From a phage: DNA of 64,000 nucleotides. The position numbers and the translations under genes are program-made. Where the stretch lies: the sequence record PX969468.1. The stretch is one strand, 5' to 3'. Shown in pieces: positions 7,867 to 53,255 of the stretch (position 1 is its first letter; every line of letters begins with the position of its first letter). Below the pieces are notes generated by a model. It did not search any database. It was not told the DNA's origin and saw only the letters and a list, made by a program, of their open reading frames with translations.

Positions 7867-7874
7867 AAATGTCC

Positions 7875-34212: not shown

Positions 34213-34881
34213 ATGGCTGTAGCTTATCCTACAATACCAATTCCAGATCTTGAAGATGCAGAAACAGTCCTGAGTGATGACTTCTTGGTTGTCAACCAGA
34301 CTGATGGGACAAGAAAGGCTAAGATTGACGATGTTGTCAACGATCTTAGCATTACTAAGATAGTCTATTTCACAGATGGTGGCTATCTTAAGAGCAAGAA
34401 GGACTTTGCTTATGACCCAGAGACTAAGCGCTACTACACGTGGAACGGGGATTATCCTAAAATAATCCTCCCAGACTCCACTGTAGAGGGTGCTGGGGGT
34501 GTGTCTGCAAATGCATGGTCTGTTTTTGGTGAGCTTGCTGCAACTTCTTATGGCAGAATAGTTGATTACGGATCTATCGGCGGTCAGCTTGATATGGATC
34601 TTGAAGTTGCGGATACCTTTAAGGTTCGACTAACTTCAAATACCACAATCTCTTTTGAAAATCAAACAGAAGGTCTTGAAGGTGTGGCGAGAACTATAAC
34701 CGTATGCATTACTCAGACCTCTGGCGGCAACAAAGTCTACTGGCCTGATAATGTTAAATGGGCCTACGGAAGAGATCCTATCCTAACATTTACAGCTGGT
34801 GCAACAGATATTTTCAAGTTGGAAACCTACGACAACGGGTTAACTTGGTACGGGGCACTGATCATCGCAGGAGCTATCTAA
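34213..34881 (+). CDS. tail fibre/spike-like protein with conserved N-terminal anchor domain
   Basis: 222 codons; N-terminal ~100 residues align with the N-terminus of the 37516..41316 protein. Confidence 0.45.
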   Translation: MAVAYPTIPIPDLEDAETVLSDDFLVVNQTDGTRKAKIDDVVNDLSITKIVYFTDGGYLKSKKDFAYDPETKRYYTWNGDYPKIILPDSTVEGAGGVSANAWSVFGELAATSYGRIVDYGSIGGQLDMDLEVADTFKVRLTSNTTISFENQTEGLEGVARTITVCITQTSGGNKVYWPDNVKWAYGRDPILTFTAGATDIFKLETYDNGLTWYGALIIAGAI

Positions 34882-34882
34882 G

Positions 34883-37480
34883 ATGCGTATTCAACACAAC
34901 ATTGATAACGTATTTCAGATGATTGAGGGGCACAGGAAGTGCCTCGATAACAACACAGGTATTACCAACACCTCTACACAAAATAGGCTAGTAAACCCTG
35001 ATGGTCTTATAGCTGCAGGGTGGGCAGGTAATAAGATAAATAATGATTGGGCAATGCATGAGTCCCAAGCTGTGTTGATTCTGGGATACATTGAAGCATA
35101 CAGGGCATCGAAAAGCGATTTCTATCTGGATAGGGCAAAAGATGCTTGGGAAGCTTACAATAGTCATCTTCTGGGTGCATATGCTGTAGAAAGTAAAATG
35201 CAAAGATTGTCCCACTACCCTCTATCCACAGACGGGGTTCCATCACATGGTGGGTTTAAAGATGTGGTGGTGTCTTTTACCAATGGTAGAGGAAAAATCC
35301 CAACTGGATCTCCGACATGGGGGGAATACCTGGACAAGGCATTCCAAGCGTATAACGGTGTGTTAGGAAGAAACACTGTAGACTCTGATGTTTACGGTGG
35401 CACAGATGCTAACCCAGATTGGACAACATCCGGATTAAGTTGGTGGGTTGAGTGGTACATAGCATGGGATGGTAACCGCTATTGGGCTAACGGTAGCATA
35501 GCCGACAGTGGTCATACGTCTGTAGAGTTCGGCACAATCCAATTACAAGATAAGGGTGTTACAGGCAGCCACAAGGTGACCTATTGTGTAAGATTACCTC
35601 AAGAGCAGGGTGGATCGGTGATACCTGCAGGATCCCCTGTAATTGTAAATCCTATAAACGTGGTTGCAGATAATCAGGCCCCAGAGCTGGACGGGGAAGA
35701 AATGTGGTGTGACGCTTGTTATCAACTCTACACCTTGACAGGTGAGGAAAAGTATTACACCGCGTTTAAACAGTCTTACAACAAGTTGCTTAATTTCAGT
35801 GATATAAACGCCTACGACAAGCTGTTTAGAAAGACCACGTTGATTAAGGCACCGTTCACGGATGGTACTTGTCTTGTTGCAGGAACAGTTCCTGTCATGA
35901 GCAGGGACAGTGACGGGTATATCAATTTTAGAATGAACGCACGCCAGCCTTGCGAAATAATTCAAAAAGGGACTACATACAAAATAGGCAGAGATGCTGA
36001 AATTGTTATGAATTTCGGAGGAGAAGGGGTTCTGTTCCAGCCGCATTTCATCCTTAACGATGGCAACAATAACAAAAAACAGTACAGGATAGGGGTTCCT
36101 TTTGGAGGGGCAGAGGTAACAGAAGTAGTTGCCAAGGTCACTGATTTCGTAGAGGTAGTTGGTAAAGACGGTAATCCGTATCTCTTACCTAAAGAGGAAA
36201 ACATTGCCGTAAGCGGTGGTGCTAGTGTCAGTATGCAGTATGATACCGACATTTACAACCACTCTGACAACTTCACCCGTTGTAATATAGCAAGAGGCAA
36301 AGTAACTTTCAATTTTGGAAGAGAGATTTCTTTAAACTCAGTAACTTATCGATCAGATGATGAGATGGTAAGGGTCAAATTTCTTGACAAAGACAGGTGG
36401 TTATGGTATGCTGATCTATATGCCACTAATGGACAATGGATAACAGAAACTCTTACTCTAGGAGATTTCAAACTAGATCCGACACAACCTCATCACACCG
36501 AAGAAGAGATTAAACCTTTCTTTGCTAATCCTAAGGGGCTCACCTCTGTAGATTTCAGCCTAAGCGACAGACAGATAGGTAATGGCTTGTTTGATCTGTA
36601 TTGCGTCAACACACTGCCGCAATTTTATATTGCAGATAGAGATGCTTATCTAATCTGGTTTAGCGTATGGATGGCAAGCAAGACAGAATCAACCGCTAAG
36701 GTTGGCGATTGCTATGTCAGAAACTACAAGCAAGGTGCATACAGGCACACACCGGGTGTGTTCCCTGCCGGAAAGGTGATAGATAAGGAAAACTATCTCT
36801 TAGAGGAAAGGCCAAATTGGCCCTACCCTGGCATGCAATACCCAGCAGTCTACTGCATGGGTGCAGAAAACATAGATCGCCATAGATTGTCAAATACAAT
36901 AGGCTTTCTGTATGACGCTCAAGTCTGGTATAATAATACATTTAAGACAGAGGGTCCAGTTGCCTCACGTTATGTATGGCAAAGAGGTAATGAAGGGTTG
37001 ACTGGTTGGTGGGAGATGGTAGATAACTCTAAGCTCCAGTCAAGATCTTTTGTTGCTGCGTGCCGCACAATATATGAGCTCAAGAAACATAAAGAACCTG
37101 TTGATGAAAGACTATTCCTGTTCTGCCAGAAATGGGCATGGTTCCTCAACAGATTCCAGTCATCTCATTCAGGAAATCTGCCTACAGACTTTAACACCTC
37201 TGGGGGATATTCTTATCAGGACAGAGGAGACAGGATGTGGGTGGTAGGTGAATGGCTTGCAGGTTGCTGCTGGCTAGGTCTGTGCGGGTATTCAGAGACA
37301 ATACCTCAAATAGATATTGTTGTGGAAGCCTGTGTGAAGCTACTGCAAAAGCACCACTTCATTAATGGGGATAATATTTTAAACGGCTGCTGGGCAGTTT
37401 CTGACCCGGTTGGCTATCACTCTGGCGAAATCCTTCGCGGTCTAGGTCTTTATGCTCAATACCGTGGATTGTACCTTTAA
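34883..37480 (+). CDS. large tail-associated protein, possible glycan-degrading enzyme
   Basis: 865 codons; co-located with fibre genes; Trp/Tyr/Asp/Asn-rich composition typical of carbohydrate-active structural proteins; no catalytic motif confirmed. Confidence 0.3.
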   Translation: MRIQHNIDNVFQMIEGHRKCLDNNTGITNTSTQNRLVNPDGLIAAGWAGNKINNDWAMHESQAVLILGYIEAYRASKSDFYLDRAKDAWEAYNSHLLGAYAVESKMQRLSHYPLSTDGVPSHGGFKDVVVSFTNGRGKIPTGSPTWGEYLDKAFQAYNGVLGRNTVDSDVYGGTDANPDWTTSGLSWWVEWYIAWDGNRYWANGSIADSGHTSVEFGTIQLQDKGVTGSHKVTYCVRLPQEQGGSVIPAGSPVIVNPINVVADNQAPELDGEEMWCDACYQLYTLTGEEKYYTAFKQSYNKLLNFSDINAYDKLFRKTTLIKAPFTDGTCLVAGTVPVMSRDSDGYINFRMNARQPCEIIQKGTTYKIGRDAEIVMNFGGEGVLFQPHFILNDGNNNKKQYRIGVPFGGAEVTEVVAKVTDFVEVVGKDGNPYLLPKEENIAVSGGASVSMQYDTDIYNHSDNFTRCNIARGKVTFNFGREISLNSVTYRSDDEMVRVKFLDKDRWLWYADLYATNGQWITETLTLGDFKLDPTQPHHTEEEIKPFFANPKGLTSVDFSLSDRQIGNGLFDLYCVNTLPQFYIADRDAYLIWFSVWMASKTESTAKVGDCYVRNYKQGAYRHTPGVFPAGKVIDKENYLLEERPNWPYPGMQYPAVYCMGAENIDRHRLSNTIGFLYDAQVWYNNTFKTEGPVASRYVWQRGNEGLTGWWEMVDNSKLQSRSFVAACRTIYELKKHKEPVDERLFLFCQKWAWFLNRFQSSHSGNLPTDFNTSGGYSYQDRGDRMWVVGEWLAGCCWLGLCGYSETIPQIDIVVEACVKLLQKHHFINGDNILNGCWAVSDPVGYHSGEILRGLGLYAQYRGLYL

Positions 37481-37515
37481 CATAGGGGGCTGTTTGCCCC
37501 CTTTCAGGAGAAAGA

Positions 37516-40500
37516 ATGGCTGATATTAAAGTTGTCAGAATTGAATCTCTTCCTGCCACTACCGCAGTGACAGAGGATGATTACCTGGTTGTTCAACAAC
37601 CAGACCTGACTCGTCGTGTAAAAATTGGCGATGTTGTCCATGTTGATGGGACTGTTTCTCATGTAATCTCCTTTAAGGAAGGTGGTAAGTTAAACGGCCC
37701 AATGGATTTTGCCTACTTCGAAGAGGAAGACCTCTACCTGCGTTGGAAAGGCGAATTTCCACACACTGTTCCTGCACTGTCTTCACCGTACTCCGATGGT
37801 GGGATTACTGACGCTGCATGGATGGTATATACAGATCCGTCCTTAAGGGAGGAGCTGGAATCTACCATTGGCGCATCTATGATCATGACAGCCGAAGGGC
37901 AGTCTGTCCAGGATGTAATGGATGTTACTGTTCAGACAGCTAACGATGCTAAAGCCCTTGCACAGCGTGTAGATTTTGGTACAGTGCACACTGTAGGCGA
38001 TGTTATTCACCTTGATAACTTTGTTGGCCCTGCAGTTATTGAAGAGGGAAGAACTACCAACTACCCTTCTGTAGCAGCTGGTGAAAAATTTCTGAATGGT
38101 GTGGTATCTCGTCGTGATACTACAACTGTTGATGGTATTTTCCGTGGCGCTACTTCAGGAGCCATGTATACCATTGCAGTAACCAACGGTGTGGCAACAA
38201 CAAAAAGAATAGCACTTCGTGATGAATTTAAACGCCTAGAGGCAAATACCCCAACAAGAACAGTTATCCGTGCTGGAGATGACTTAAACACGGCAGGGTA
38301 CTTGCAGCTTGACGCAACAGGCCGTTGGGGCATGTGGAACCAACAAACAGCCTCGTGGCAACCTCTTGCTATAGAGCAAGGCGGTACAGGTGCCAGGGAT
38401 GCCGCAGGTGCACGCATTAACTTGGGGGCTTTCTATAAGCAACGTGCAGCCCTTGAGCCAAATTTCAATATCAATAACTTGACTGGTAATCAGGATGGTG
38501 TATACTACCAACCGATGACTGCTTATGCAACCGAGGCAAATGGTTACCCTGCAGGTTCTGGTGCTGGTCACTTGATTGTTTGGCAGAACAATGCTAACGG
38601 CGGTACAGGTTGTCGTCAGGAATACTATCCATTCTCTAACGTAGATGTTTGGTATTTGAGAACCTATCAGGCCAACACAAACCAGTGGACTGCATGGCAG
38701 CCGATGGTCAGACCTCGTAACGATGATACCTTTAGATCGCACATCGGTCTTGGGCCTAGAAATACCCCTACCTTCGGGCACCTTTACCTGTCTCAAAGTT
38801 CTGCTGATGTTAAGTCGGCATCAGGTATTGTTAACGGGGACAAATACAGTGCTGACGGTGTCCTTGAGCACGGGTATAGGATCTACTCTGAAGTAAGAAA
38901 CGACAATAAGGCTTGGTTGACAATCCACCTACACAAAGGTGCAAAAGGATCTGAAACTCATAGATATTTGGGTTTCCGCGAAGACGGTGTATTAGACTGC
39001 CCTAAATACATGCAGGTTGGGGATCTTACTGGTCAGCTGACAAACTGGGGACTTGGAGAGTGGATCCGTAGTTCAGGGGCAGAAAGAGGCTTCTGGGGGT
39101 CTAAGAAAGCCGCCAAGATGGTTGTCTGGGATGGTGGGATGGACGAATCCGGTAACGGCACTCTGGAATGGGGTGTTTATAACAACCGGAAGGCCAAGTG
39201 GGAACCTTTACCTCAAGCCGCAGGCGGCACTGGGGCTACAACTTTAGCAGATGCTCAGAATCTGTTCAAAGTTCCTATAGCAGCAGGTGTAAAAGACTTC
39301 TTGACACTGCCAAGAACCGCAGGGATGGAAGATGGGAAATACTACCCAATTATCGTTAGAACAGATCCGTATTACGCCCCTTCGACAGGTACAGATATTA
39401 CCATAGTCACCAGGTCTTCATCTGGAAATGACCCTATGAACTGTGCCACCCTGCAGTGTCACTATAGAACTGGTGGCTGGACGGACAGGGGAGACTCTTT
39501 CTACGGGGTAGTAAATTTCTACCAGAATGAAAAAGCACTTCTTGGGATGGTTGCTCCAACAAGGGGTAAACAAGAGTATGTTGCTTTCTATGTAGAGGCT
39601 CGTGCTTTCCCTGTCAGCATATACGCAAGTAGAAATGTTGTCGAAGTGTTTACCAGAGAGCAAGATTACCAGGTCGGGGCTGTAACAGACAATCAGGATG
39701 GGGTTAAGTTCGTTGCACCTCTTCAGTCAGCAGATTTGAATCTTGCTATTCTTGGAGATAACAACACCAATACCAGACCTATTGTTGACTTCAAAGGTAC
39801 TTCAGGGTTCTACACTGGTGGCGGCACACAGTGGCACTATATAGGCACTGCTGAGCGCTATGCTGTGATGAGCAAAATGAATATGCCAAAAGTCGAGCTA
39901 TGGGCAGACGGCCTTGACTATTTGTGCTACGGCAGTCCTAGAAAGGCGTTATTCTCTAATGCAGGATTCCAGTGTGCATCCGATGGGACAGAGGATCTGA
40001 CTAACGGTACGTTTACCTCTAAATGCGGTAATGGTGCTGGTCTCAAAGGTCAGGCAGAGTTCAGATCTACTCCAGAGGCTGGTCAAGTTATTGTTCGTGA
40101 TGTTGTAGGTTCTGCTCACAGATTCTACAACTTCAACAAAGATGGCACTTTCTCAGCTCCTGGTGGTTTTGTATGCCACACAGGTGCAGACTGGAACAAC
40201 CAGTTCGGGAATAACAACCCTTCTAAAATAATGGCTGGTAACGTCAACGGACCTGAAGGTTCCATGGTTGTAGCAGGGTTGTCGGTTGGTTTTTCTGGAA
40301 ACTACGCTTTCCAGATGGCAGGTCGTTTAGACCAGCTGTACACTCGTTCCATAGAGCAGGGAAACCACAGAGCGTGGAACAAAGTTATTCAGCACCGTGG
40401 TCAAGGGTTGGGAACTAATGACCTTAACGACTACAAAGGAGATAGAGAGGGTTTTTATCATCAGGAGGCCAATGCTCAAGCCGCACTTGATAGAAACTAC

Positions 40501-41316
40501 CCATGCTCTCAGGCAGGTACTCTCCTTGTCTATAGAAACTATGTCAACGTTCCAGAGAGTTGCGTACAGGAATATACAACATATCTTGGAGAAAAATTCC
40601 TGCGTTATGGAACAACGATAGGTGGTGTTTTCACATGGGGCCATTGGCAGCAGCTTGGCGGTAAGGGTATCACTTTAAAAACTCAAGGGTCCAATCTTGA
40701 ACCTGAGTTCACAATACACACAGGTGGTGGTACTGATGTTACCAACACTTCGAACATGCCTTCTAATACAGGCAGGTTGTACTATTGGGGTGATGGCGCT
40801 GATAGGAAGAATGTGTTTGAGTTTCAGATAAGTGATAACTCAACAGCCGCCAGCTGGGTATTCCACTGCGGAGCTAAGGCAGATGAGGCTAAATCAAGAT
40901 ATTTTGCTGTCAACGGCACGGTAGAATGTACCACTGTTAGCCAAAGTTCCGATAGAGACCTGAAGGATAATATAGAGGTCATACCTAACGCTCTGGAAGC
41001 AATTAGAAAGATGAAAGGCTATACCTACACCTTGAAAGAGAATGGTATGCCTTATGCAGGCGTGATTGCTCAAGAGGTTATGGAAGCATTGCCAGAGGCA
41101 GTAGGATCTTTCGTGAAAAGGAAGGAAATAGAAGGTCCTACTCAAGACGGTATTCCTCTGATGACCGAGGAAAGGTTCTATAACGTTGACTACGCAGCTG
41201 TAACAGGCTTGCTTGTCCAGGTTTGCAGGGAACAGGACGATAAAATAACCGCCCTTGAGGAGCAGGTTAAAAAATTGACAGAGGTTGTTACTGGATTGCA
41301 AGAGAAACTGAAGTAA
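37516..41316 (+). CDS. long tail fibre with C-terminal intramolecular chaperone (peptidase S74-like) domain
   Basis: 1266 codons; C-terminal ...SQSSDRDLKDNIEVIPNALEAIRKMKGYTYTLKENG... followed by coiled coil, matching self-cleaving chaperone domains of phage fibres. Confidence 0.6.
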   Translation: MADIKVVRIESLPATTAVTEDDYLVVQQPDLTRRVKIGDVVHVDGTVSHVISFKEGGKLNGPMDFAYFEEEDLYLRWKGEFPHTVPALSSPYSDGGITDAAWMVYTDPSLREELESTIGASMIMTAEGQSVQDVMDVTVQTANDAKALAQRVDFGTVHTVGDVIHLDNFVGPAVIEEGRTTNYPSVAAGEKFLNGVVSRRDTTTVDGIFRGATSGAMYTIAVTNGVATTKRIALRDEFKRLEANTPTRTVIRAGDDLNTAGYLQLDATGRWGMWNQQTASWQPLAIEQGGTGARDAAGARINLGAFYKQRAALEPNFNINNLTGNQDGVYYQPMTAYATEANGYPAGSGAGHLIVWQNNANGGTGCRQEYYPFSNVDVWYLRTYQANTNQWTAWQPMVRPRNDDTFRSHIGLGPRNTPTFGHLYLSQSSADVKSASGIVNGDKYSADGVLEHGYRIYSEVRNDNKAWLTIHLHKGAKGSETHRYLGFREDGVLDCPKYMQVGDLTGQLTNWGLGEWIRSSGAERGFWGSKKAAKMVVWDGGMDESGNGTLEWGVYNNRKAKWEPLPQAAGGTGATTLADAQNLFKVPIAAGVKDFLTLPRTAGMEDGKYYPIIVRTDPYYAPSTGTDITIVTRSSSGNDPMNCATLQCHYRTGGWTDRGDSFYGVVNFYQNEKALLGMVAPTRGKQEYVAFYVEARAFPVSIYASRNVVEVFTREQDYQVGAVTDNQDGVKFVAPLQSADLNLAILGDNNTNTRPIVDFKGTSGFYTGGGTQWHYIGTAERYAVMSKMNMPKVELWADGLDYLCYGSPRKALFSNAGFQCASDGTEDLTNGTFTSKCGNGAGLKGQAEFRSTPEAGQVIVRDVVGSAHRFYNFNKDGTFSAPGGFVCHTGADWNNQFGNNNPSKIMAGNVNGPEGSMVVAGLSVGFSGNYAFQMAGRLDQLYTRSIEQGNHRAWNKVIQHRGQGLGTNDLNDYKGDREGFYHQEANAQAALDRNYPCSQAGTLLVYRNYVNVPESCVQEYTTYLGEKFLRYGTTIGGVFTWGHWQQLGGKGITLKTQGSNLEPEFTIHTGGGTDVTNTSNMPSNTGRLYYWGDGADRKNVFEFQISDNSTAASWVFHCGAKADEAKSRYFAVNGTVECTTVSQSSDRDLKDNIEVIPNALEAIRKMKGYTYTLKENGMPYAGVIAQEVMEALPEAVGSFVKRKEIEGPTQDGIPLMTEERFYNVDYAAVTGLLVQVCREQDDKITALEEQVKKLTEVVTGLQEKLK

Positions 41317-41415: not shown

Positions 41416-42006
41416 ATGTTTTTATGGGAAAGGCCTAGATACCTTCCAGATATTAGATTGGAGCTGCTGGCAGATATTGTTACGTTTAAAAGTCCGTTTA
41501 CAGGTAAAACGCAAAAAGTGACCTATGCCACACCTAACTGGAAAGGCACTTTGACGGTTTCCAATATCAGCGAGTCACAGCTGCTAGAGCTTAAGAGCTT
41601 TGTTGATCAGGTGTATAAAGATGGGAACATTTTTCTTATTAAAACGTACGGTCACTCAGTAACAGCTAATGAGCCAATCGCCCTTGGGCCTACTGGTAAC
41701 GACGATTTTTTGAAGACGGTCGGATGGGAGCCAAACAGAGACATAGCCAGAGCTGGGGATAAAATATCTGTCAATGATGAATTGAAAGTGGTAACAGCTC
41801 CAGTGCGCAGCGATGGTGTTGGGTCTGCTGTCATAAGCATATCCCCAAGACTTAGAAAACCTATTGCCGCAGGGGACACTATGAAGATAATAACTCAATC
41901 CCCAAAGGGTAGGTTTCATATCAGAGATATTTATAAAATTAAGCAAAAAGTCGATGCTATGCAAAAAGGTGATAATATAGTTATCAACTTCTTTGAGGAT
42001 TTCTAA
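41416..42006 (+). CDS. tail tip/baseplate assembly protein (tentative)
   Basis: 196 codons; GGAGG RBS; first of three small genes preceding the J-like gene. Confidence 0.35.
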   Translation: MFLWERPRYLPDIRLELLADIVTFKSPFTGKTQKVTYATPNWKGTLTVSNISESQLLELKSFVDQVYKDGNIFLIKTYGHSVTANEPIALGPTGNDDFLKTVGWEPNRDIARAGDKISVNDELKVVTAPVRSDGVGSAVISISPRLRKPIAAGDTMKIITQSPKGRFHIRDIYKIKQKVDAMQKGDNIVINFFEDF

Positions 42007-42007
42007 G

Positions 42008-42559
42008 ATGATTAGAGCGCCATTAGATAATTTATTTCTTGAAAAGCTGGAGCTTGATAGTGTTGAGATCTTAATTGCTGCAAAGCTAGAGCTACCAACA
42101 GGTACTGTCAGGGTGTGCTCAGGAACTGGTGTTGTGGTGATTGAGGGGCAACATTTTATAGGGATAGGTGGATCAGCAACATTGACCGCTGTGTCTGAGA
42201 AAGATGCCACCAACTTCGGGTCTGTGGTAGCAACATTGAACGGGTTTGATCCAAAGTATGTAGGTGATCTGCTGAAGACGGAGTATTCGGGTTGTCGTGC
42301 CACGTTGTATATCACAGCTATGGAGAATGGTTTACCTGTTACAACCAATGGCTTGTTTGACGGCCTTATAACAGACATGGCTATTCAGACAGGGGAGAAT
42401 AGTGCTTTGTCCATATCCATATCTTCCATCTTCAACAGCTGGTTAAGAGGTTTTCCTTATCGGTACACAGAGGAGAGCCATAGCTCAAGAAACGATAATG
42501 ACAGATTTTTTAAATATGTGGATCAGGTGGCAAGCCGCCCGATCATTTGGGAGGTTTAA
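42008..42559 (+). CDS. tail tip/baseplate assembly protein (tentative)
   Basis: 183 codons from ATG just after upstream stop. Confidence 0.35.
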   Translation: MIRAPLDNLFLEKLELDSVEILIAAKLELPTGTVRVCSGTGVVVIEGQHFIGIGGSATLTAVSEKDATNFGSVVATLNGFDPKYVGDLLKTEYSGCRATLYITAMENGLPVTTNGLFDGLITDMAIQTGENSALSISISSIFNSWLRGFPYRYTEESHSSRNDNDRFFKYVDQVASRPIIWEV

Positions 42560-42984
42560 TGAGCACACACCCTCGTTTAGTGGACTGGCAAGAAAGATTG
42601 TGGAAAGTGTTTGACGAAGAAGCCACCGTCCCGTTTGAATGGGGATTCCACGATTGCTGCACTTTTGCGGCTAAGTGTGTTGATGCCCAATACGGAACAG
42701 ATTTTCTTTCTAACTTTGAAGGAACGTATAAAACAGAGTTGGAAAGCAAGAGATGGTGCATGCTTCGTTTCAAAACCACACATCTGCCTACTATTTTTGA
42801 TCTCTTTTTGACTCGATTGGATACTCCTAAACAGGTTCAGCGTGGTGATATTGTTATTTTCGAAGGTCTGAACGGGCTCACCGCTGGTGTGTTCTGGAAC
42901 AACCAGATTTGGGCGAAAGGTGATAAAGGGATCTTTATGTTCGACATGAAAGATTCTATCGTTGTTGATGTCTGGAGGTATTAA
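42559..42984 (+). CDS. tail assembly protein with Cys-containing FHDCCTF motif (tentative)
   Basis: 141 codons from Met with GGAGG RBS; motif WGFHDCCTFAAKC; position immediately before J-like gene. Confidence 0.35.
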   Translation: MSTHPRLVDWQERLWKVFDEEATVPFEWGFHDCCTFAAKCVDAQYGTDFLSNFEGTYKTELESKRWCMLRFKTTHLPTIFDLFLTRLDTPKQVQRGDIVIFEGLNGLTAGVFWNNQIWAKGDKGIFMFDMKDSIVVDVWRY

Positions 42985-45900
42985 TGCCAATTGCAATGAT
43001 TGATAACATCGTTGCTTCTGCAAGATCTTCGAGCTATGACTGGAACGCATCCAAGGCAGCTCTGGCTGACAGCCTGAACACTGTTACCACCAGAACCCTT
43101 GATAAGATTTTCGAAGGCAACAAATCTTACAGAAGTCAACAAGATAGACAAAAACTTCTCAGATCTTCTGCTGCACCTTGCTCTGTAGTATATGGGAAGA
43201 CACGTACATCTGGATTGCTTGCGTTTTTAGAGCAGGACAGGGACAGAACCCTTCATTGTGCTATTGTTCTTGCCAATCATCCCTTGGAAGGTATAGAAGA
43301 TATACTTATCGACGGTAATCCTATTTCCTCGTATGGGGATTTGGTATCGTGGGAGTTGCATAACGACAGGAAAACCTCTGATCCTTTCATGGGCACACAC
43401 TGCCCTTCGTGGTCACCAGACATGATAGGTAGAGGGATCAGTTGGCTACGTGCCAGCTTTAAGTTTGACCCTAACAAGTTTCCTTTTGGGTTGCCAAACG
43501 TTACACTTGTCAAGGTTGGTAAAAAATGTTATGATCCTCGTATCAGTAAAGAGGTGTATACCAACAACGCTGCCTTGGTGATTCTGGACTATCTAAGAAC
43601 GTACCTTAAATGTCCTGACGAAACCATCAACTGGGAGTCCTTCAAGGAAGCTGCCAACATATGCGACGAGGCTGTAAAAAACGCGGACGGAACCAGTGAG
43701 CGCCGTTACACCATTAATGGTGAGTTCGACATGGACGAAGCACCAGCAAGTATTATGGCAGAAATGCTGAAGGCTTGTGGTGCAGATCTTAGCTATGTAG
43801 CTGGCAAATACGGTCTGCTGGTAGGTGCATACTATGGCCCGGCAACAATGACACTGAGTGAGGACTGTGTTTGCGGTGAGGTTAAGATCTATCCTGAAGC
43901 CTCCTTCGACAAAAGATCAAACACAATAACTGGGAGATTCACCAGTCCAACCAAAGGGTATTCTGAAACAGACTTCCCATCGGTGTTCGTACCTGAATGG
44001 GTAGAGAAGGACGGAGAAAGAAAGATAATTGATATAGATTATCGTTTTGTTACCAGTCCTTATCAGGCTCAGCGTGTTTCCGCAATATTCTTAAGACGTG
44101 CCAGAGCTGGCAGGATTATTGAAGTAACCTGCAATATGCGGGGTTTTAAATTTAAGCCTGGGCGTTACGTTACGATGGACCTCCCAAGTATTGGTATAGT
44201 GGGCCAAGAAATGAGGGTTCTTGAATGGGAGTTCACCAAAAAGGGCGGTGTCAAGGTAAAACTCCGTCAAGATGCTAAAGAGTGGAATGATGCCACAGGG
44301 CAACTTCCGGATTCTGGAGATGTGGATATTCCGATATCCCCGTCCGGTGTAGCTCAACCGCAAAACTTCAGATACTCTGTTCTTCAAGCTGGGGAAGTAA
44401 CTCATGGTGTTTTGGCTTGGGACAACGTTGGAACTTATGCTCAAAATATTGTGCAGGTAAGAAAGAACGGAGAGATTATTTGGACAGCGCAAACAGTCGA
44501 GCAGTTTGTCCGCGTAGAAGGATTGACCAAAGGGTCATATACAGCAACCGTGGTTGCAACATCTTATAAGGGTGGTGTATCTCCAGAAGCCTACTGCGAG
44601 TTCAACATTCAAGCACCTGAAGCTCCTGTTTCTGTAGAAGTTAAGCAGGGATACTTTGCTATCACCTTGATTCCGCACAGCAGGGACTTAGCAAGTGTAA
44701 GCACCCAGTATGATTTTTGGACATCTGGTATGACAAGGTTGCCTGACACAAGTGATGCAACCGTTACTTCAAAAGCCACCCGTATGGGTGTTGGTTCAAC
44801 TTGGACATCTGAAGGTCTGCAGAACGATAAGATTTATTATTGGTATATTCGAACCACAAACGCTTTTGGTAGTTCTCAGTTTGTAGAATGCGCTGCACGC
44901 TGCTACACCTCTATTGAAGATTTGATGCCTCAGATAGATGCTGAATTTAAAAAGACAGAAACTTATAAAGAGTTGATGAGCACTTTAGATTCCTCTATCG
45001 AGGAGGTTGAAAATCGTGTCATAGAGCTTAACAAGTACATGGACGGAAGGGTAGATGAGGCATTCCAACAACTTGGAGATAGGATAGGTGCGGTAGTTAC
45101 AGAGACAACTCAGAAGTTTGAGGATGTCAATGGAAATATCACAGCTCTGGATAGGAAACTTGTTGCTGCACAGAACAAGTTCACCAACGATCTGAACACT
45201 GAAAGTGGAAGACTGGCATCCCTGATCGAGACAACCAATAAAGCAACCACTGATCTTCTGAACAAAAAGACAGAGGCTTTAGACGAGAAATTGGTTGCAG
45301 CCAAAGGGGAGTTGGTAGAACAAATAAGTGGTGTGGAGAGCGGATACCTTGCCGGAGATAAAACTCTAGATGGCAAGATCAATACCCAGAGAACGGAACT
45401 TGATGCAAGCATCTTAAGCACCAACCAGGCGACAGTGGATCTTCTCAACAGGACATCTGAAACTCTGGATCAAAAGATCAGTCAGACAAACGCGACGGTA
45501 TCTAAGAACTATACCACCCTTGATGGTAAGATAACTACCGCAAAAACTGATCTCAATACCTTGATTGCCAATACCAACAAGGCCACCACAGATTTGTTGA
45601 ATCAGAAAACCTCTGCACTGTCGGAGCAGATAACTTCTGCACGTGGGGAAATTTCTACCAACAAACAGGCGATTAAGGATTTAGATGGGAAGCTGACCTC
45701 CACAAAAACAGCACTGGACGCTACAATCTCCGATACCAACAAAGCAACCGTGGATCTTATTAACGGCACAGCGTCAGCTATTCGTCAAGAACTTGCTGTT
45801 GCTAAGCAGGAGATCATTGATGATGTCGGTGATGTGTCAGAGCTTAGAGCTGCAGTAGCTACAACATCTAAGGCTGTGACAGACTTAGAGGGCAAAGTAA

Positions 45901-46823
45901 ATGCTCAATGGGGCACAAAAATACAGGTAGACTCCGCAGGGAATAAGTATGTGGCAGGTATCCAGTTAGGCATGGAAGGCTCTGGAGGCCAAGTTCAGTC
46001 ATATTTCATGGTTAGCGCAAACAACTTTGCGGTATACAACCCAGGCAATGGAACAGCAACCCTTGCTTTCGCAATCAAGAACAACCAAGCGTTCTTGAAA
46101 GACGCTTTTATAGAGAACGGCACGATCTCTTCTGCCAAGATCGCGCAAGAAATTTCGTCAAACAACTACGATGGCAATGGGTACCACAAATACGGTTGGT
46201 ATATTAACAAGAACGGGCACGCCCAGTTTATGGATGTGTGGGTGAAAGGTAACATCAACGCTAGTGCAGGTAACTTCACAGGGGCAGTTAACGCTACCAG
46301 TGGCACCTTCCGTGGAGATGTTTATGCCAACAATGGTAGCTTTAGAGGAACCATAGATGCAACAGGAGGTACATTCCGTGGACGTGTAGAAGCTTCCGTT
46401 ATCCGTGCTAACCAGTTCGAAGGTGCGATTGTTGCACACAGGACTTACGGAGATTGTGCTCCAGTATACAACTCCCAGCAAAGGGTTTGCCGTTGGAGGT
46501 GGAGATATGTAGATAACGTTTCAGGTCAGGGTAAGAACGTAACATTCTTCTTTAAACTGAATGGTACTCTTGCCAGCTCCCAGCTTAACGTTTGGATAGC
46601 CGGACATCAAATCCTTGCAGGCAAGAAGTACGGAAACGACAACAACGGCATGTGTGCGGTAGGGATAACAGGTCTTGGTGAACAAACTATAGACATTATC
46701 GTCGAGATTTACACACCATGGTCAACGTCAAGTGTGACAGGGGTTACAATATCTTGTCCAACCGTAATAGTTAGTCGTTCAAACTCTAGCCTCCAGGGAC
46801 CTTGGAACGAGTCTCATGACTAA
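42984..46823 (+). CDS. lambda J-like tail tip / host-specificity protein with internal tandem repeat region
   Basis: 1279 codons; segments QAPEAPVSVEVKQGYFAITLIPH and YVAGIQLGMEGSGGQVQSYFMVSANNFAVYNPGNG resemble conserved blocks of lambda J as recalled; central ~240-residue region of imperfect repeats (TNKATTDLLN...). Confidence 0.6.
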   Translation: MPIAMIDNIVASARSSSYDWNASKAALADSLNTVTTRTLDKIFEGNKSYRSQQDRQKLLRSSAAPCSVVYGKTRTSGLLAFLEQDRDRTLHCAIVLANHPLEGIEDILIDGNPISSYGDLVSWELHNDRKTSDPFMGTHCPSWSPDMIGRGISWLRASFKFDPNKFPFGLPNVTLVKVGKKCYDPRISKEVYTNNAALVILDYLRTYLKCPDETINWESFKEAANICDEAVKNADGTSERRYTINGEFDMDEAPASIMAEMLKACGADLSYVAGKYGLLVGAYYGPATMTLSEDCVCGEVKIYPEASFDKRSNTITGRFTSPTKGYSETDFPSVFVPEWVEKDGERKIIDIDYRFVTSPYQAQRVSAIFLRRARAGRIIEVTCNMRGFKFKPGRYVTMDLPSIGIVGQEMRVLEWEFTKKGGVKVKLRQDAKEWNDATGQLPDSGDVDIPISPSGVAQPQNFRYSVLQAGEVTHGVLAWDNVGTYAQNIVQVRKNGEIIWTAQTVEQFVRVEGLTKGSYTATVVATSYKGGVSPEAYCEFNIQAPEAPVSVEVKQGYFAITLIPHSRDLASVSTQYDFWTSGMTRLPDTSDATVTSKATRMGVGSTWTSEGLQNDKIYYWYIRTTNAFGSSQFVECAARCYTSIEDLMPQIDAEFKKTETYKELMSTLDSSIEEVENRVIELNKYMDGRVDEAFQQLGDRIGAVVTETTQKFEDVNGNITALDRKLVAAQNKFTNDLNTESGRLASLIETTNKATTDLLNKKTEALDEKLVAAKGELVEQISGVESGYLAGDKTLDGKINTQRTELDASILSTNQATVDLLNRTSETLDQKISQTNATVSKNYTTLDGKITTAKTDLNTLIANTNKATTDLLNQKTSALSEQITSARGEISTNKQAIKDLDGKLTSTKTALDATISDTNKATVDLINGTASAIRQELAVAKQEIIDDVGDVSELRAAVATTSKAVTDLEGKVNAQWGTKIQVDSAGNKYVAGIQLGMEGSGGQVQSYFMVSANNFAVYNPGNGTATLAFAIKNNQAFLKDAFIENGTISSAKIAQEISSNNYDGNGYHKYGWYINKNGHAQFMDVWVKGNINASAGNFTGAVNATSGTFRGDVYANNGSFRGTIDATGGTFRGRVEASVIRANQFEGAIVAHRTYGDCAPVYNSQQRVCRWRWRYVDNVSGQGKNVTFFFKLNGTLASSQLNVWIAGHQILAGKKYGNDNNGMCAVGITGLGEQTIDIIVEIYTPWSTSSVTGVTISCPTVIVSRSNSSLQGPWNESHD

Positions 46824-46927: not shown

Positions 46928-48418
46928 GTGGCTAAGTATGGATTGACAGAGGCTGGTTTCGTTATACCAACCCTAAATGACCTAATCGTTGAAACTAAGC
47001 AAAGCCTGATCCGTGCTTTTGGCGAAAACTTCAACGTACAGAGTAACTCCGTTGCAGATAAGCTGACCACTATCTTCAACGAGCGAGAGTATCAACTTAT
47101 TCTTATGGCAGCATCTGTATACGCATCGCAGACGCTGTATGGGGCAGAAGGTATTTACCTGGATGAGCTTCTTGGAAGACAGGGTATTTACCGAAGAGGC
47201 CGTTCTAAATCATCAGGTACCTGCCAGTTGACAATCAACACAACTGTGCCGTACAATATGATTTATGATTCCAAAACTTATACGCTGGACAGTGGCAACT
47301 TTGTTCTTAGCAACGATGTGCAGGTGGCGGGAAATCTTATTGCTCACAGAATAAACGCTCCAGACCTAAGAATTGGGAAATACAACTTTCAAATTACCAA
47401 CCAGACAGACGGAAGTATCAAAACAAAAAGTTTGGTTTTAACAGATAAGGCTCTGGACTCTTCTGATTTGCCAAGCTTTTACGGCGAGATTAAGCAATTC
47501 ATTGTCGATAATACAACCCTGCTGAATGATGATTTAATTCAGATAGATATGTTGACAGGGACGTTGTGGATAGGGTACAATTCGAATCTTGATCAGGTTG
47601 GACTTAATAGCAGGGTAGATTTCAGAGTATCCCCGATTGTAGGGGAAAGAACTATCACCCTAGATGTTATCGCTAACGAGGCTGGTGAGCTGTCAAGAGA
47701 GGCAGAAACCGTGACAACAATGTCACCTACTCCCAGCGGATTTATCAAGCTTACCAACCGAGAAAGATTCAATGAGGGTAGGGATGTTGAGAAAGACTCT
47801 GAGTATCGCTTAAGAGCTTCCAGCACTAAACAGCTGACATCTAAAGCTACCCGTCCTGCAATCCTTAGCGCTGTAAGCGAGGTGAAAGGTGTTGAAAAAG
47901 TAAGAGTGTTCTCTAACAACACCGATAAAACGGATGTGAAAGGTATACCACCTTATAAGTTTCAAGTGGTGGTGTTTGGTGGTGCAACAGAGGATATCTG
48001 TCAGGCGCTGTATCAAACCATAGCTTGCACAAACAGAACTTATGGGAATATCTTCTACGATATTACCACATCAGACGGTCAGACTGAAAGGATTTATTAC
48101 TCCAAGGCAAATACCTACCGCCTAGATGTAAGAATTACCTACTCAGGTGCTGCGCTTTCCACAACCGAAAAAGATGCCATTGTAGAGGCTCTTTTGCAGG
48201 TTGTTAACGGACTGGATGTTGCAGATACGTTGTACAATATCCAATTGGTTGGTGCTGCATCGGCTGCTGTGTCAATAGGCAGATTTAACAGACTTGTAAT
48301 TCAAGTCAAACCTGTGGGGGCCTCTGATGAAGCTTACACTACAAACGATATTGTTGCAAACATGACTGAGGTGTTTGACCTAGACGAAAGTAATATAACT
48401 TTCCAACAAACTATTTAA
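46928..48418 (+). CDS. baseplate/tail structural protein
   Basis: 496 codons; GTG start with GGAGG RBS. Confidence 0.4.
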   Translation: MAKYGLTEAGFVIPTLNDLIVETKQSLIRAFGENFNVQSNSVADKLTTIFNEREYQLILMAASVYASQTLYGAEGIYLDELLGRQGIYRRGRSKSSGTCQLTINTTVPYNMIYDSKTYTLDSGNFVLSNDVQVAGNLIAHRINAPDLRIGKYNFQITNQTDGSIKTKSLVLTDKALDSSDLPSFYGEIKQFIVDNTTLLNDDLIQIDMLTGTLWIGYNSNLDQVGLNSRVDFRVSPIVGERTITLDVIANEAGELSREAETVTTMSPTPSGFIKLTNRERFNEGRDVEKDSEYRLRASSTKQLTSKATRPAILSAVSEVKGVEKVRVFSNNTDKTDVKGIPPYKFQVVVFGGATEDICQALYQTIACTNRTYGNIFYDITTSDGQTERIYYSKANTYRLDVRITYSGAALSTTEKDAIVEALLQVVNGLDVADTLYNIQLVGAASAAVSIGRFNRLVIQVKPVGASDEAYTTNDIVANMTEVFDLDESNITFQQTI

Positions 48419-48429: not shown

Positions 48430-49116
48430 ATGGCAGAGATTAAGTCGGATGTCAACCACATCCACACTCTGCCAGATTTTGTTCAGGGAGGTCTTGATTA
48501 CCTGCCTGGGGATTTTCTGGCTGAGAAGGTTAATTTAGTCACATTCTTAACCGTGTACCTTAAAAGGTTGGAGAATGTTGATAAAATACTGGTAGGCTTG
48601 GCTGAAGGAAGATTGCTTAACAATGCCAGCGGGAGATACCTTGACGAAGTTGGTAATCAACTTGGTATCCTTAGGAATGGTCTTTCAGACGCGGATTTTC
48701 GTGCTACGCTGATTATTCAGCAGGCAGCATCATCAAGAGGTGGTACTCGCGAAGATGTCATCTCCACCTTACGACAGTTGTTCGGAAGAGATAATTTCGA
48801 TACGTGGAAAGGTGACAATTTCAGGTTTGACATAAACATTAGAAAAACTTGCTTTGACATATTGCAGTCTATCGACCAGATCTTAGATATGCTGCCATTG
48901 CCTTGTCATTTGCGTCTTACGGAATCGCAAGGGCAAGCTTTTGGTTTTGAAGGGGACTCTGCAGCTCTCGGCTTCGGATCAGTGTGGGAAGAAAACCAGT
49001 TCGGGGTTGGTGGGTTGGCTACTTTGTTATATGTTCCTGACGTAAGACCTGATTGGGACACCACAACTATTTATTGTGAAAGTATTACAGTAAACGCAAC
49101 TAGACAGGAGGGTTAA
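48430..49116 (+). CDS. baseplate/tail structural protein
   Basis: 228 codons. Confidence 0.4.
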   Translation: MAEIKSDVNHIHTLPDFVQGGLDYLPGDFLAEKVNLVTFLTVYLKRLENVDKILVGLAEGRLLNNASGRYLDEVGNQLGILRNGLSDADFRATLIIQQAASSRGGTREDVISTLRQLFGRDNFDTWKGDNFRFDINIRKTCFDILQSIDQILDMLPLPCHLRLTESQGQAFGFEGDSAALGFGSVWEENQFGVGGLATLLYVPDVRPDWDTTTIYCESITVNATRQEG

Positions 49117-51188
49117 TGGCAATAGCTGTTTTTAAACCTTACCGTGATTACTCTACAATGGCTGCACGGTTTCATTACCGCACAGTTCAAGATACTGCAG
49201 TTCCAGGTAGGGATTATGATCATGTTGAGGGTGATATAACTATTCCGGTTGGGGCAACCAGTATTGAGATTCCTGTAGAAATTGTTGACAAATTGCCAAA
49301 CAGGTTGCCAAGAAGCTTCTTTATGGAGTTTTCATCAAACTCCCAAGGGGTTATGATTGGAACACAAAGAGCGAAATGTACAATAGTTTCAGATGAGAAT
49401 CTTGACAGAATATCTTGGGATACCGTTGAGGAGAGAATGTTTCACCCAAGATACTGGGTTACAACCACACAGCAGACTGAAAGCACCTGTATTGTTGCGG
49501 ATAATAACTGCTGTATTAACCGTTTAGTGTCAAGAACATATGGAGGCATGGCTGGGTGCATTTGGGAAACAGTTGACAAGTATGACCATTTCGGTATTGG
49601 ATTTGATGATCACTACGAGATGAGAAACACCAAGCTTTGGTTCAGAATGTCAATAACCAATGCCAGCAACTTTTCCACCCCTGAAAAGATGATTATGACT
49701 GTAGACCTTGTTGATGGTACAATCATCTATGTTCCTTTAGCTCAATATGCTGTCAGCATCTCAGAGGATAAGAATGTTGCAGAAATTCATATTGATTTCG
49801 AGGACTGCGTCGGGATGGACCAGAACAACAACATGATGGGTGTTGATCCTCGGCAGGTGAGAAGGATTCTAATACCACTTATGCCTAAAGATTGGGTAGG
49901 TAATAGCACAGACCCGAGAACGGAAAATGTAGAGTGTGAGCTGCGTCTAGATCTGCTTCAGCCGGACACAGGCTGGAAAATGATGCAACTTAACAATATC
50001 CAGGTGAAAGAGCACGACGTCGGGATCTGCACAGCATATGACGATATGTGGAACGTATCCCCTTTAAGGGTGTTGAGCAATATCAAGCGCCTTGGCTATA
50101 CCGGAACCATAAATCATTATGTTGGTATGAGTCATTATTATGACTACACATGGTCAGGAACCCAATGGTCTATAAACAAAACAGGGGCTCTAAACGCTGC
50201 AGCTTATAAATGGCATGATGATTTTATGTACAATGCCAAACGACATGACTTCGACGTTATGCAGTCTGTAAGCTTTGAGCTTTATAGCGATGCCTGCCCG
50301 TTGGAATGGACCCAGAGAGACTGGAACGATAACTATGCTAAAACAGGCTATACGCCTTGTAGTTACCTCCTGTCTCCAACCATTGAAGAGGGTATGAATT
50401 TCCTTACTGCGGTATTTAAGAATTTTGCATCAGCCGCTATGAGAAACAACCTGCCAGTGATTATGCAGATTGGTGAACCGTGGTGGTGGTTCAATACCGA
50501 TACTCGTAAGCCTTGTATTTATGACTACCCTACAAAGCAGGCGTTTTATGATGAGACTGGTGAATATGCACTAGACATTGGGACTATTGACGATCCTAAA
50601 ACTGGCGGTGTTTATGACAAGTATGTAGCATTTTGTCGTGGTAAGCTTGGCGCTCGTATTGCAGCCATTTCAAAGGCAATAAAAGCACACGCTGCATCGG
50701 CTCAGATGACAGCTTTACTGTTTTTCCCCACTATTATGGAAACCGAGCTTACGCAAAAACTGAACCTTGCTGACCAATATAAAAAGGAAGCAGGTGCTCT
50801 TGATTTCTTCTGCACTGAGTGCTACGATTGGGTGATGCAGGGAGGTATTGAAAAGGCAAAAGAGTCTGTAAACATACCTATCGTTAAGTTAGGTTGGAAA
50901 CCGTCTGAAATACAATACCTTGCAGGGTTCGTTCCTAGCAAAGAGCTTGCTCCGGTATATGGCTACGACCCAACCAGGAATTACCAAGAATTTTTATGGA
51001 GATGTATTTGCGGAAACATGGCAACCATAGAGTATAGATACCCTGAGGTAAAACAGTATGTGTGGGCATACCCGCAAGTAATGTCTGACAGCATCACTGT
51101 TACCGCTAGAGATTCTACCGTGCTTCATATGGGGCAGGTTGCTCTGAAAGGGTATGTAGAAGATGTTGTCCCGCCAGACTTCTCATAA
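49116..51188 (+). CDS. tail-associated protein, N-terminal Calx-beta-like segment (tentative)
   Basis: 690 codons; N-terminal DYDHVEGDITIPVGATSIEIPVEIVD pattern; Trp-rich C-terminal region. Confidence 0.3.
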   Translation: MAIAVFKPYRDYSTMAARFHYRTVQDTAVPGRDYDHVEGDITIPVGATSIEIPVEIVDKLPNRLPRSFFMEFSSNSQGVMIGTQRAKCTIVSDENLDRISWDTVEERMFHPRYWVTTTQQTESTCIVADNNCCINRLVSRTYGGMAGCIWETVDKYDHFGIGFDDHYEMRNTKLWFRMSITNASNFSTPEKMIMTVDLVDGTIIYVPLAQYAVSISEDKNVAEIHIDFEDCVGMDQNNNMMGVDPRQVRRILIPLMPKDWVGNSTDPRTENVECELRLDLLQPDTGWKMMQLNNIQVKEHDVGICTAYDDMWNVSPLRVLSNIKRLGYTGTINHYVGMSHYYDYTWSGTQWSINKTGALNAAAYKWHDDFMYNAKRHDFDVMQSVSFELYSDACPLEWTQRDWNDNYAKTGYTPCSYLLSPTIEEGMNFLTAVFKNFASAAMRNNLPVIMQIGEPWWWFNTDTRKPCIYDYPTKQAFYDETGEYALDIGTIDDPKTGGVYDKYVAFCRGKLGARIAAISKAIKAHAASAQMTALLFFPTIMETELTQKLNLADQYKKEAGALDFFCTECYDWVMQGGIEKAKESVNIPIVKLGWKPSEIQYLAGFVPSKELAPVYGYDPTRNYQEFLWRCICGNMATIEYRYPEVKQYVWAYPQVMSDSITVTARDSTVLHMGQVALKGYVEDVVPPDFS

Positions 51189-52241: not shown

Positions 52242-52255
52242 ATCGGAGGACTAGC

Positions 52256-52840
52256 ATGAAAATACTTCAAGAGTTTAAACTTTACCAACCGGGATCTGGC
52301 GAATACCACGCCAACAAGGAAACCAAAGAGCTGACCCCTCAAGAGGTTGAGGATTACACCGCATACACTGGGTATTTTTTACGTAATGATGATGGCGATT
52401 GGTATGTGCAGTCACGAACATTACGACAAGAAAATCCGGGTTGTATCTTCCTACTTGTTGACGAGAAGGGAATTCTTAAGACATCTACAGAAGAGCCTGA
52501 TGCCTTATGGCCTGCTCCAGGTCTTCGTGTGGTTATCGCCAAAAAAGAAGAGGTACCAGAAAACATTATGCTTCACCACGACGCTTTGCGTTTAGTTGGT
52601 GATGAATTTGTCACAGATAATGAATTCTTTGTTCAACAGGCAGAGGGTGTCATAGAGACAGAACTTGCTTGGGCTACTGCTAGAATTGGTGCCTATCAAG
52701 ACATGATTGACCTTGAATATGATCTTACTGATGACCAGAAACGTAACATCAGAGATTTGAAAATGTACAGGGTAAAACTTCTTGAAATAGATACATCTAA
52801 AGCCCCTGACATTTTCTTCCCGGAGCGACCTACCCTCTAA
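52256..52840 (+). CDS. tail fibre assembly chaperone (Tfa-like)
   Basis: 194 codons immediately downstream of fibre gene; C-terminal LTDDQKRNIRDLKMYRVKLLEID pattern. Confidence 0.45.
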   Translation: MKILQEFKLYQPGSGEYHANKETKELTPQEVEDYTAYTGYFLRNDDGDWYVQSRTLRQENPGCIFLLVDEKGILKTSTEEPDALWPAPGLRVVIAKKEEVPENIMLHHDALRLVGDEFVTDNEFFVQQAEGVIETELAWATARIGAYQDMIDLEYDLTDDQKRNIRDLKMYRVKLLEIDTSKAPDIFFPERPTL

Positions 52841-52851
52841 GAGGAGGTGTT

Positions 52852-53166: not shown

Positions 53167-53196
53167 ACAAAGGTCAGGACGGAAAGGACTCCGTTC

Positions 53197-53225: not shown

Positions 53226-53255
53226 AGTCCTAAGGAATTTTCTCAGGAGAACGTG

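Follow-up and report, generated by a model that had tools for sequence, protein, structure and literature searches.

Three consecutive plus-strand genes at positions 34213-41316 of a 64,000-nucleotide stretch of phage DNA (record PX969468.1; the whole stretch is called the window below) raise the question of how many tail appendages they encode, and which of their products stand on the virion in their own right. A first-pass annotation had read the outer two as fibre or spike proteins with a common N-terminal anchor, the longer of them ending in a self-cleaving chaperone-like domain, and had noted a gene of possible glycan-degrading character between them. The analysis reported here points to a partly different arrangement, in which two baseplate appendages would use paralogous anchors, each a peptide of ~45 residues followed by a Tail_spike_N domain. 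One would be the fibre of 1266 amino acids (aa), cleaved by its own Peptidase_S74 chaperone; in the other, the 222-aa protein probably serves as adaptor to the 865-aa protein rather than as an independent fibre, its N-terminus anchoring to the virion while its C-terminal ~100 residues would hold a toroid-fold protein. Taken as a whole, this explanation appears probable to us. The features on which it is built are the following, with Pfam expect values (E) where a domain was matched.

34213..34881, plus strand: 222-aa protein, homologue of rV5 gp43, the proposed trimeric adaptor, with an N-terminal anchor and a conserved C-terminal domain
34213..34347, plus strand: residues 1-45 of the 222-aa protein, N-terminal anchor peptide (..IPDL....V..DDFLVV.Q.DGTRK..), aligning with residues 7-42 of the 1266-aa protein
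34348..34527, plus strand: residues 46-105 of the 222-aa protein, Tail_spike_N (E=2.8e-10, residues 51-105)
34537..34878, plus strand: residues 109-222 of the 222-aa protein, conserved C-terminal domain (C-domain) recognised by BLASTP across lineages, the proposed dock for the 865-aa protein
34883..37480, plus strand: 865-aa protein, homologue of rV5 gp42, a putative (α/α)6-toroid, glycosidase-like virion protein with a β-rich insert at ~330-615 and without an anchor domain of its own
37516..41316, plus strand: 1266-aa long tail fibre, homologue of rV5 gp41, a mosaic of anchor, shaft, tip and chaperone (phrog_6578 and tblastn pattern)
37516..37650, plus strand: residues 1-45 of the 1266-aa protein, anchor peptide, paralogue of the one in the 222-aa protein (sequence alignment)
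37651..37830, plus strand: residues 46-105 of the 1266-aa protein, Tail_spike_N (E=1.8e-10, residues 46-103)
40948..41316, plus strand: residues 1145-1266 of the 1266-aa protein plus the stop codon, Peptidase_S74 intramolecular chaperone, with predicted autocleavage between SQS and SDRDLK, N-terminal of Ser1145, and Lys1150 as partner
41233..41313, plus strand: residues ~1240-1266 of the 1266-aa protein, C-terminal heptad-repeat (coiled-coil) helix, a/d pattern I-L-V-L-V-L-L read from the sequence

The positions and lengths of the three open reading frames (ORFs) agree exactly with those first given, and the frames correspond to rV5 gp43, gp42 and gp41, the last being 1272 aa long in rV5. Over all 7,104 bases, the region is 99.0% identical in DNA to Escherichia phage rV5_ev147; matches to the locus occur in 124 phage records, nearly all of Vequintavirus, with 116 covering at least 80% of the query and other Vequintavirus records being 91-98% identical. 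By these matches, the locus is an ordinary side-fibre gene cluster of an rV5-like myovirus (Vequintavirus). The curated record of phage WalterGehring from BASEL places the three genes within a baseplate and fibre cluster, in the order tape measure, tube initiator, hub, central spike, 'baseplate protein', the three genes, and further wedge and fibre genes. Vequintavirus records hold proteins 98-99% identical to the 222-aa protein, which also matches phrog_7760 'tail fiber protein' (E=2.6e-118), and gp41, gp42 and gp43 have all been detected in rV5 virions by mass spectrometry (Kropinski et al. 2013, PMC3606486). As a side observation, the fibre loci of rV5-like or phi92-like E. coli phages are matched at 96-98% identity by 18-25 or so records named 'Campylobacter phage' (MG065646, MG065647, MG065639 and others; host C. 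jejuni), whose host labels look doubtful.

The role of the 222-aa protein turns on its C-domain, which has no Pfam match and no sequence match in the PDB, the latter also when a C-domain profile was used. By BLASTP, the domain matches small upstream proteins of nine other phage lineages (E=1e-15 to 2e-30); by tblastn, the whole 222-aa protein is matched only in Vequintavirinae, and hundreds of other phages match residues ~109-222 alone. The phage records matched by the C-domain and by the 865-aa protein in tblastn are nearly the same, 539 as against 525, and the counts per genus hardly differ. Gene order was inspected in 15 lineages, namely the rV5-like window, PVP-SE1, the phi92-like alia, the jumbo phage PBECO4, Rosemountvirus SE13, the Grimontviridae A24 and SE131, the T7-like Atoyac1, the Felix-O1-like vEam_S_24, the siphoviruses PSA28 and KLB28, Vibrio phage K386, Schitoviridae phage Philippe, an Ackermannviridae Vibrio phage, and Roseobacter phage CRP-603. 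In every one of them, the small gene with the C-domain is followed, at -11 to +8 nucleotides, by a gene of 865-1157 codons (902 in CRP-603), and in 14 this next gene encodes a clear homologue of the 865-aa protein, with E from 0 to 1e-218. The divergences of the C-domain and of the large protein are correlated (Mantel r=0.35, p=0.002), and in phage S144 both the small and the large partner (ORF16 and ORF17) are virion proteins (PMC7432712). The 865-aa gene does lie between the two genes with the common N-terminus, as had been noted, but it is no mere neighbour: because the conserved C-domain of the 222-aa protein goes with the 865-aa gene across lineages, the 865-aa protein is taken to be the partner of the 222-aa protein.

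The N-terminus of the small protein, by contrast with its C-domain, follows the type of virion. It is Tail_spike_N in rV5 and PVP-SE1, Phage_T7_tail in Atoyac1 and phage_tail_N (the lambda side tail fibre's N-terminal domain) in siphovirus KLB28, and it is unrelated in the remaining lineages, so that one C-domain is joined to three different Pfam anchors and to further unrelated N-termini. A HMMER search, run exhaustively, returned 3,985 representative proteins with the C-domain at E<=1e-3; among the best 150 of these, the domain lies at the extreme C-terminus in 134 and the window-type N-terminus occurs in only 2. Across phages of E. coli, Salmonella, Vibrio, Aeromonas, Pseudomonas, Erwinia and Stenotrophomonas, the C-domain remains 24-59% identical. 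Since the N-terminus is variable and the C-terminus is conserved across hosts, the C-domain is better read as a surface for a conserved phage partner than as a receptor-binding tip. Fusions of C-domain and toroid, sought because of the 1,456-position phrog_2871 profile, were absent from the best 150 C-domain representatives.

The rival reading keeps the 222-aa protein as a second, independent short fibre or spike, as first proposed, with the C-domain as its receptor-binding tip and the 865-aa protein as a separate enzyme attached elsewhere on the tail. PHROG families with the C-domain are indeed labelled 'tail fiber protein', the extreme C-terminus is the usual place of receptor-binding tips, CRP-603 has the C-domain without a toroid protein and some proteins carry it in tandem, and the phi92 study took gp140, the small C-domain protein of that phage, as a fibre candidate by itself (PMC13450770). 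Against this stand the reversed polarity of conservation, the close succession of small and large gene in 14 of 15 lineages, and the 865-aa protein itself, which has no anchor domain recognisable by Pfam yet is a virion component in rV5 and S144; moreover, the unassigned fibre density of phi92 was not matched by an AlphaFold 3 model of gp140 by itself (PMC13450770). We therefore consider an independent fibre unlikely, and the 222-aa protein most likely does not form a second fibre of its own. The adaptor reading would also correct two misleading labels on this gene, 'tail fiber protein' and 'sialidase domain protein'. The latter appears in BASEL records such as MZ501111.1 (bas51_0025, 19832-20500), where Pfam finds Tail_spike_N and no sialidase domain, and was probably carried over from endosialidase spikes with the same N-terminal module. 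The label 'adaptator protein' in phage ESCO32 proved to name the deacetylase fibre gene and not the small protein.

What the adaptor would carry is indicated by the predicted structure of the 865-aa protein. In an AlphaFold2 model, the middle (~330-615) is β-rich and confidently predicted, and about twelve long helices contributed by both ends of the chain form the (α/α)6 toroid that characterises six-hairpin glycoside hydrolases (GH105, GH88, GH76, GH8 and similar), a fold assignment thus supported at the level of the model. The glycan-degrading character first suggested for this protein is upheld at that level, not as sequence membership of a glycoside hydrolase family. A profile of 14 sequences of the 865-aa family matches cellobiose 2-epimerases and GH76 over one hairpin alone (E~0.003), and the single sequence has no sequence match in the PDB. 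Because of the toroid fold, the anchorless 865-aa protein probably binds or cuts surface polysaccharide. A non-catalytic role, in which a structural or lectin-like module or an assembly factor re-uses the (α/α)6 scaffold and degrades no glycan, is in our judgement rather unlikely. Five acidic residues are invariant in the family alignment (E60, D270, D277, D502 and D609).

Several points weigh against the combined reading of adaptor and glycosidase-like partner. In CRP-603 (examined locus 3876-8005), a C-domain protein of 471 aa is followed by an unrelated 902-aa DUF7483 protein, the sole exception of the 15 lineages; the possibility that this protein is a diverged toroid protein was ruled out (hhalign probability 0.3%; Pfam DUF7483), and the C-domain may thus pair with other partners. 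Tandem copies of the C-domain (2-5) occur in 31 of the best 150 representatives, in proteins of up to 2,036 aa. The gene context covers the 15 inspected lineages, and metagenomic proteins with the C-domain run to thousands. A single-chain AlphaFold2 model of the 222-aa protein, built from four near-identical sequences, reached a mean predicted local distance difference test (pLDDT) score of 34, for which reason no fold is assigned to the C-domain. The model of the 865-aa protein, built from six sequences, is of moderate confidence (mean pLDDT 64, predicted template-modelling score 0.46); a word-indexed protein search had yielded only four relatives of the small and five of the large protein, even with the 14-sequence profile, hence the shallow alignments for structure prediction. 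No Pfam family matches the 865-aa protein at E<=0.01, glycosidase families included, and the invariant acidic residues are at most candidates for a catalytic role. Binding of the C-domain to the 865-aa protein is likewise something that we infer from conservation and gene adjacency.

With these points taken into account, the adaptor reading can be carried one step further. Tentatively, and at somewhat less than even chances, we suggest that the C-terminal ~100 residues are a portable dock by which one (α/α)6 glycosidase-like protein is plugged onto almost any type of tail through exchange of the N-terminal anchor; its reach may include myoviruses, siphoviruses and podoviruses, at the baseplate, the tail tip or the neck. 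If so, the gp140-gp141 pair would be a candidate for phi92 fibre II, and its counterparts for density left unfitted in the maps of Bas49 and Bas54. In myoviruses of the Rosemountvirus and Loughboroughvirus types (Salmonella phage SE13, examined locus 4336-7916, and S144), the pair was observed outside the baseplate cluster, flanked by head-tail connector genes on one side and the sheath gene on the other; there are hints that the adaptor-toroid pair attaches in the neck region in these phages.

The second half of the question concerns the anchor that the 222-aa protein has in common with the 1266-aa fibre. Pairwise BLASTP alignment, the check named by the first-pass annotation, places residues 8-105 of the former against residues 7-105 of the latter (E=1e-17; 99 aa, 37% identity, 55% positives, one gap), and the residues originally listed (DD.LVV.Q.D.TR.KI.DVV, DFAY, W.G..P, GG and AW) all fall within it. 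Compared by phmmer with all six-frame ORFs of at least 60 aa in the window, each 115-aa N-terminus had a single match besides itself, namely the other one (E=8e-17 and 4e-18); the likeness is far beyond chance and specific to this pair within the window. Both N-termini contain Tail_spike_N (PF18668), with 40.6 bits in the 222-aa and 41.2 bits in the 1266-aa protein against a Pfam cut-off of 25, and no other ORF of the window carries it. Sequence matches in the PDB are Sf11 gp13 (9occ), CBA120 TSP3 and TSP4, and G7C gp63.1 for the 222-aa protein, and 9occ_G (E=1.1e-10) as well as 9lna, 9d84, 4qnl, 5w6h and 4oj5 for the 1266-aa protein.

On sequence grounds, the shared N-terminus has two layers, a peptide at residues 1-45 and then Tail_spike_N at residues ~46-105. 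The peptide of the 222-aa protein, 47% identical to residues 7-42 of the fibre over 36 aa (E=7e-7), also aligns with the N-termini of PVP-SE1 gp51 and gp49, the phi92-like small protein, and phi92 gp140 (E=0.007); the form x-I/V-x-x-L-P...D-D-Y/F-L-V-V-x-Q...T-R/K-K is common to both window proteins, PVP-SE1 51 and 49, and phi92 gp140 and gp143. In phi92 gp140 the peptide is present and the Tail_spike_N domain absent; in phi92-like genomes, DNA conservation between alleles stops ~43 codons into the gene at the gp143 position; and in the cryo-electron microscopy (cryo-EM) structure of Sf11 gp13, the virion contact is made by residues 4-59, helices that precede the Tail_spike_N-like part. From these three observations, the first ~45 residues, rather than Tail_spike_N, are probably the actual virion contact. 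The window pair resembles CBA120 TSP1, TSP3 and TSP4, G7C gp63.1 and Sf11 gp13 in having a homologous N-proximal domain right after the attachment segment, and differs from these tailspikes in the preceding ~45 residues, which form a different, family-specific peptide. As a separate observation, in the Felix-O1-like Erwinia phage vEam_S_24 (examined locus 1890-5304), the consecutive gp039, gp040 and gp041 all open with a looser 'LP...D..LV' peptide, which suggests that the shared-anchor principle may extend to Felix-O1-like phages.

That the two proteins attach to the same virion site, as was first concluded, is borne out as far as the kind of anchor goes, in that peptide and Tail_spike_N are shared; the evidence stops short of one identical site. 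No gp10-like branching domain was found among the window tail proteins scanned with Pfam. A candidate docking platform for both anchors is provided by a further gene of the cluster:

46928..48418, plus strand: 496-aa Baseplate_J-like wedge protein, rV5 gp36 (Pfam Baseplate_J, E=9.5e-10)

GenBank annotation notes the similarity of phi92 gp145 to PVP-SE1 gp048 and, in turn, of PVP-SE1 gp048 to rV5 gp036; by this chain of annotation, the Baseplate_J-like gene is the window homologue of gp145. In phi92, cryo-EM showed fibres I and III attached to the C-terminal domain of gp145 (PMC13450770), and by analogy the 496-aa protein may serve as the platform in the window phage.

The other appendage would be the 1266-aa fibre. 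Its chaperone-like end, recognised at first reading, is confirmed by Pfam as Peptidase_S74 (PF13884; 55.6 bits over residues 1145-1196, where the cut-off is 22). The SDRDLK motif begins at residue 1145, with S-x4-K spacing and the Ser as the first residue of the domain, so that the predicted released piece counts 122 residues and not the ~135 initially estimated. The chaperone domain occupies these last 122 of the 1266 residues, at the extreme C-terminus, and closes with the coiled coil that had also been noticed: in the final ~27 residues, ITALEEQVKKLTEVVTGLQEKLK, I, L and V recur cleanly at the a/d positions of a heptad when read from the sequence, and PCOILS had predicted a coiled coil for rV5 gp41 (PMC3606486). 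SSDRRIK in the solved tip of S16 gp37 (E=9e-5) aligns with this motif, as does the chaperone domain of human MYRF. In the phi92 record FR775895, the annotated mature-peptide boundary of the endosialidase lies between ...TINT and SDGTLK, as compared with ...VSQS and SDRDLK here, the common form being S-D-x-x-L-K. Catalysis by the S74 Ser/Lys dyad is established for K1F endoNF and T5 pb1. With the members of this family (K1F endoNF, T5 pb1, S16 gp37 and human MYRF), the fibre has in common its Pfam membership, the S-x4-K with which the domain opens, its place at the C-terminus and the trailing helix; its sequence identity to the solved examples is low, and cleavage is here a prediction.

By homology, then, the fibre would trimerise with help from its own C-terminal S74 chaperone, which would subsequently cleave itself off before Ser1145 by means of the Ser1145/Lys1150 dyad, so that 1144 residues would remain in the mature fibre. 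The alternative is that the domain stays in the virion as a degenerate, non-cleaving chaperone. The published table of rV5 virion peptides was consulted on this point: gp41 is represented by eight peptides (coverage 8.1%), seven of which map clearly, all upstream of residue 834, and none of which falls in the last 122 residues. Zero of eight would be expected by chance with P=0.44, which is statistically uninformative, and since a coverage of 8.1% gives this result by chance 44% of the time, the missing C-terminal peptides are no evidence for processing; this too has to be entered against the proposed explanation, and it leaves room for a retained domain. Retention is opposed by the canonical S-x4-K spacing, by a motif of the same form as the annotated phi92 cleavage site, by the strong Pfam score and by a cryo-EM virion map of Vequintavirus Bas54, in which the S74 domain of the S74-bearing fibre has no density (PMC12143355). 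Because the 1266-aa protein is the only S74 protein among the window tail proteins scanned with Pfam, it is taken as the counterpart of that Bas54 fibre, 'TC12'. A retained chaperone accordingly seems very improbable to us, and cleavage of the predicted kind is well supported by homology and weakly by data.

The first-pass view of a modular system with exchangeable distal parts also holds for this fibre. In tblastn searches, phages Mangalyan and LL12, with tips that differ and lack S74, match residues 1-1046 at 93-95% identity; residues 237-1261 resemble a T5-like siphovirus fibre (37% identity), residues 409-1264 the lateral fibre of Queuovirinae, residues ~18-141 the tailspikes of Ackermannviridae, and residues 1127-1254 the ends of T4-like and cyanophage fibres, so that the shaft is common to T5-like and Queuovirinae fibres. 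The Mangalyan allele (1479 aa) has the same Tail_spike_N, lacks S74 and ends in a weak ConA-like lectin match, and its tip fits the lectin-headed allele of the fibre seen by cryo-EM in Bas49 (PMC12143355). The tip would thus vary between alleles, and the BASEL work had indeed counted the gp41 gene among three lateral fibre genes with allelic variation (Maffei et al. 2021, PMC8594841). For phage engineers, the module boundaries are of use: an anchor peptide of ~45 aa, Tail_spike_N, predicted tip exchange at about residue 1046 and predicted cleavage at Ser1145.

Other tail genes of the window were noted in passing. Directly downstream of the long fibre (41416-46823, plus strand), siphovirus-style tail-tip genes lie inside the myovirus baseplate cluster, comprising a distal-tail-protein-like gene (phrog_1302), a 188-aa tail protein, a DUF6950 gene and a 1279-aa lambda-J-like protein (Phage_Tail_Tip, Ig_J). 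A 690-aa protein (49116-51188, plus strand) contains Calx-beta, NCTSP_N and an N4 gp65-like 'non-contractile tail sheath' TIM barrel (E=7e-80), and is the deacetylase-type fibre whose link with NGR glycan as receptor is described in the literature for Vequintavirus and phi92 (gp142). At 51201-54299 (plus strand), there are two paralogous short tail-fibre genes (346 and 348 aa), with a lambda-gpK-type assembly gene (Caudo_TAP, 194 aa) after the first; these short-fibre and assembly genes are described in the literature as Mu gpS/gpU-like. GC skew and AT skew flip sign near 9-10 kb and again near 62 kb of the window, coinciding with the switch from minus- to plus-strand ORFs, as of divergent transcription units.

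Much of this locus is familiar. The adsorption apparatus of rV5- and phi92-like phages, the 'nanosized Swiss army knife', is textbook knowledge. The shared anchor and the S74 end are already known, since the rV5 paper of 2013, the PVP-SE1 and phi92 GenBank records and the BASEL Vequintavirus cryo-EM study of 2025 (PMC12143355) hold them: the C-terminus of rV5 gp41 was found to resemble the K1F endosialidase chaperone (3GW6) and the N-terminus of gp43 that of the P22 tailspike (PMC3606486), Peptidase_S74 is listed for gp41 in the rV5 annotation table (Kropinski et al. 2013, PMC3606486), and gene 49 of PVP-SE1 is noted in its record as sharing its N-terminus with rV5 gp43. The cassette of adaptor and toroid is where the present analysis would add to this picture: the small putative adaptor and a glycosidase-like protein travel together in at least 14 very different phage lineages, a cassette of which no description was found in the literature searched, Schwarzer et al. 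2012 on phi92 not covered. The phi92 cryo-EM paper leaves gp141 unmentioned and fibre II unassigned (Chen et al. 2026, PMC13450770).

The closest known systems are rV5 gp43, gp42 and gp41 and their orthologues in the BASEL Vequintavirus phages (PMC3606486, PMC8594841 and the RBPseg study, PMC12143355), which are the same genes without material difference; in the rV5 and BASEL literature examined, no description of gp43 as an adaptor for gp42 was found. Phage phi92 (FR775895) resembles the window in having a small C-domain protein (gp140, 157 aa), a toroid protein (gp141, 958 aa) and then the gp143 spike, which combines the shared N-terminal peptide with an S74 chaperone and an annotated cleavage site, as in the 1266-aa fibre. 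Unlike the window, it has no Tail_spike_N in gp140 and places the deacetylase fibre gene gp142 between gp141 and gp143, while the distal part of gp143 is an endosialidase instead of a long fibre shaft, and its chaperone piece measures 162 aa as against 122 aa here. In logic, the nearest parallels are the SP6 and K1-5 gp37 adaptor with its tailspikes (PMC9145550 for SP6) and T4 gp36/gp37, in which a distal protein with a gene of its own is presented by a small, virion-anchored one. The 222-aa and 865-aa proteins have no sequence relationship with these systems, the protein that would be presented is an (α/α)6 toroid and not a β-helix spike, and the interaction is here one that we infer; what the window pair exhibits of an adaptor system is an anchor end that varies with the type of tail, a partner end that is conserved, and a partner gene that is tightly linked in 14 of 15 lineages.

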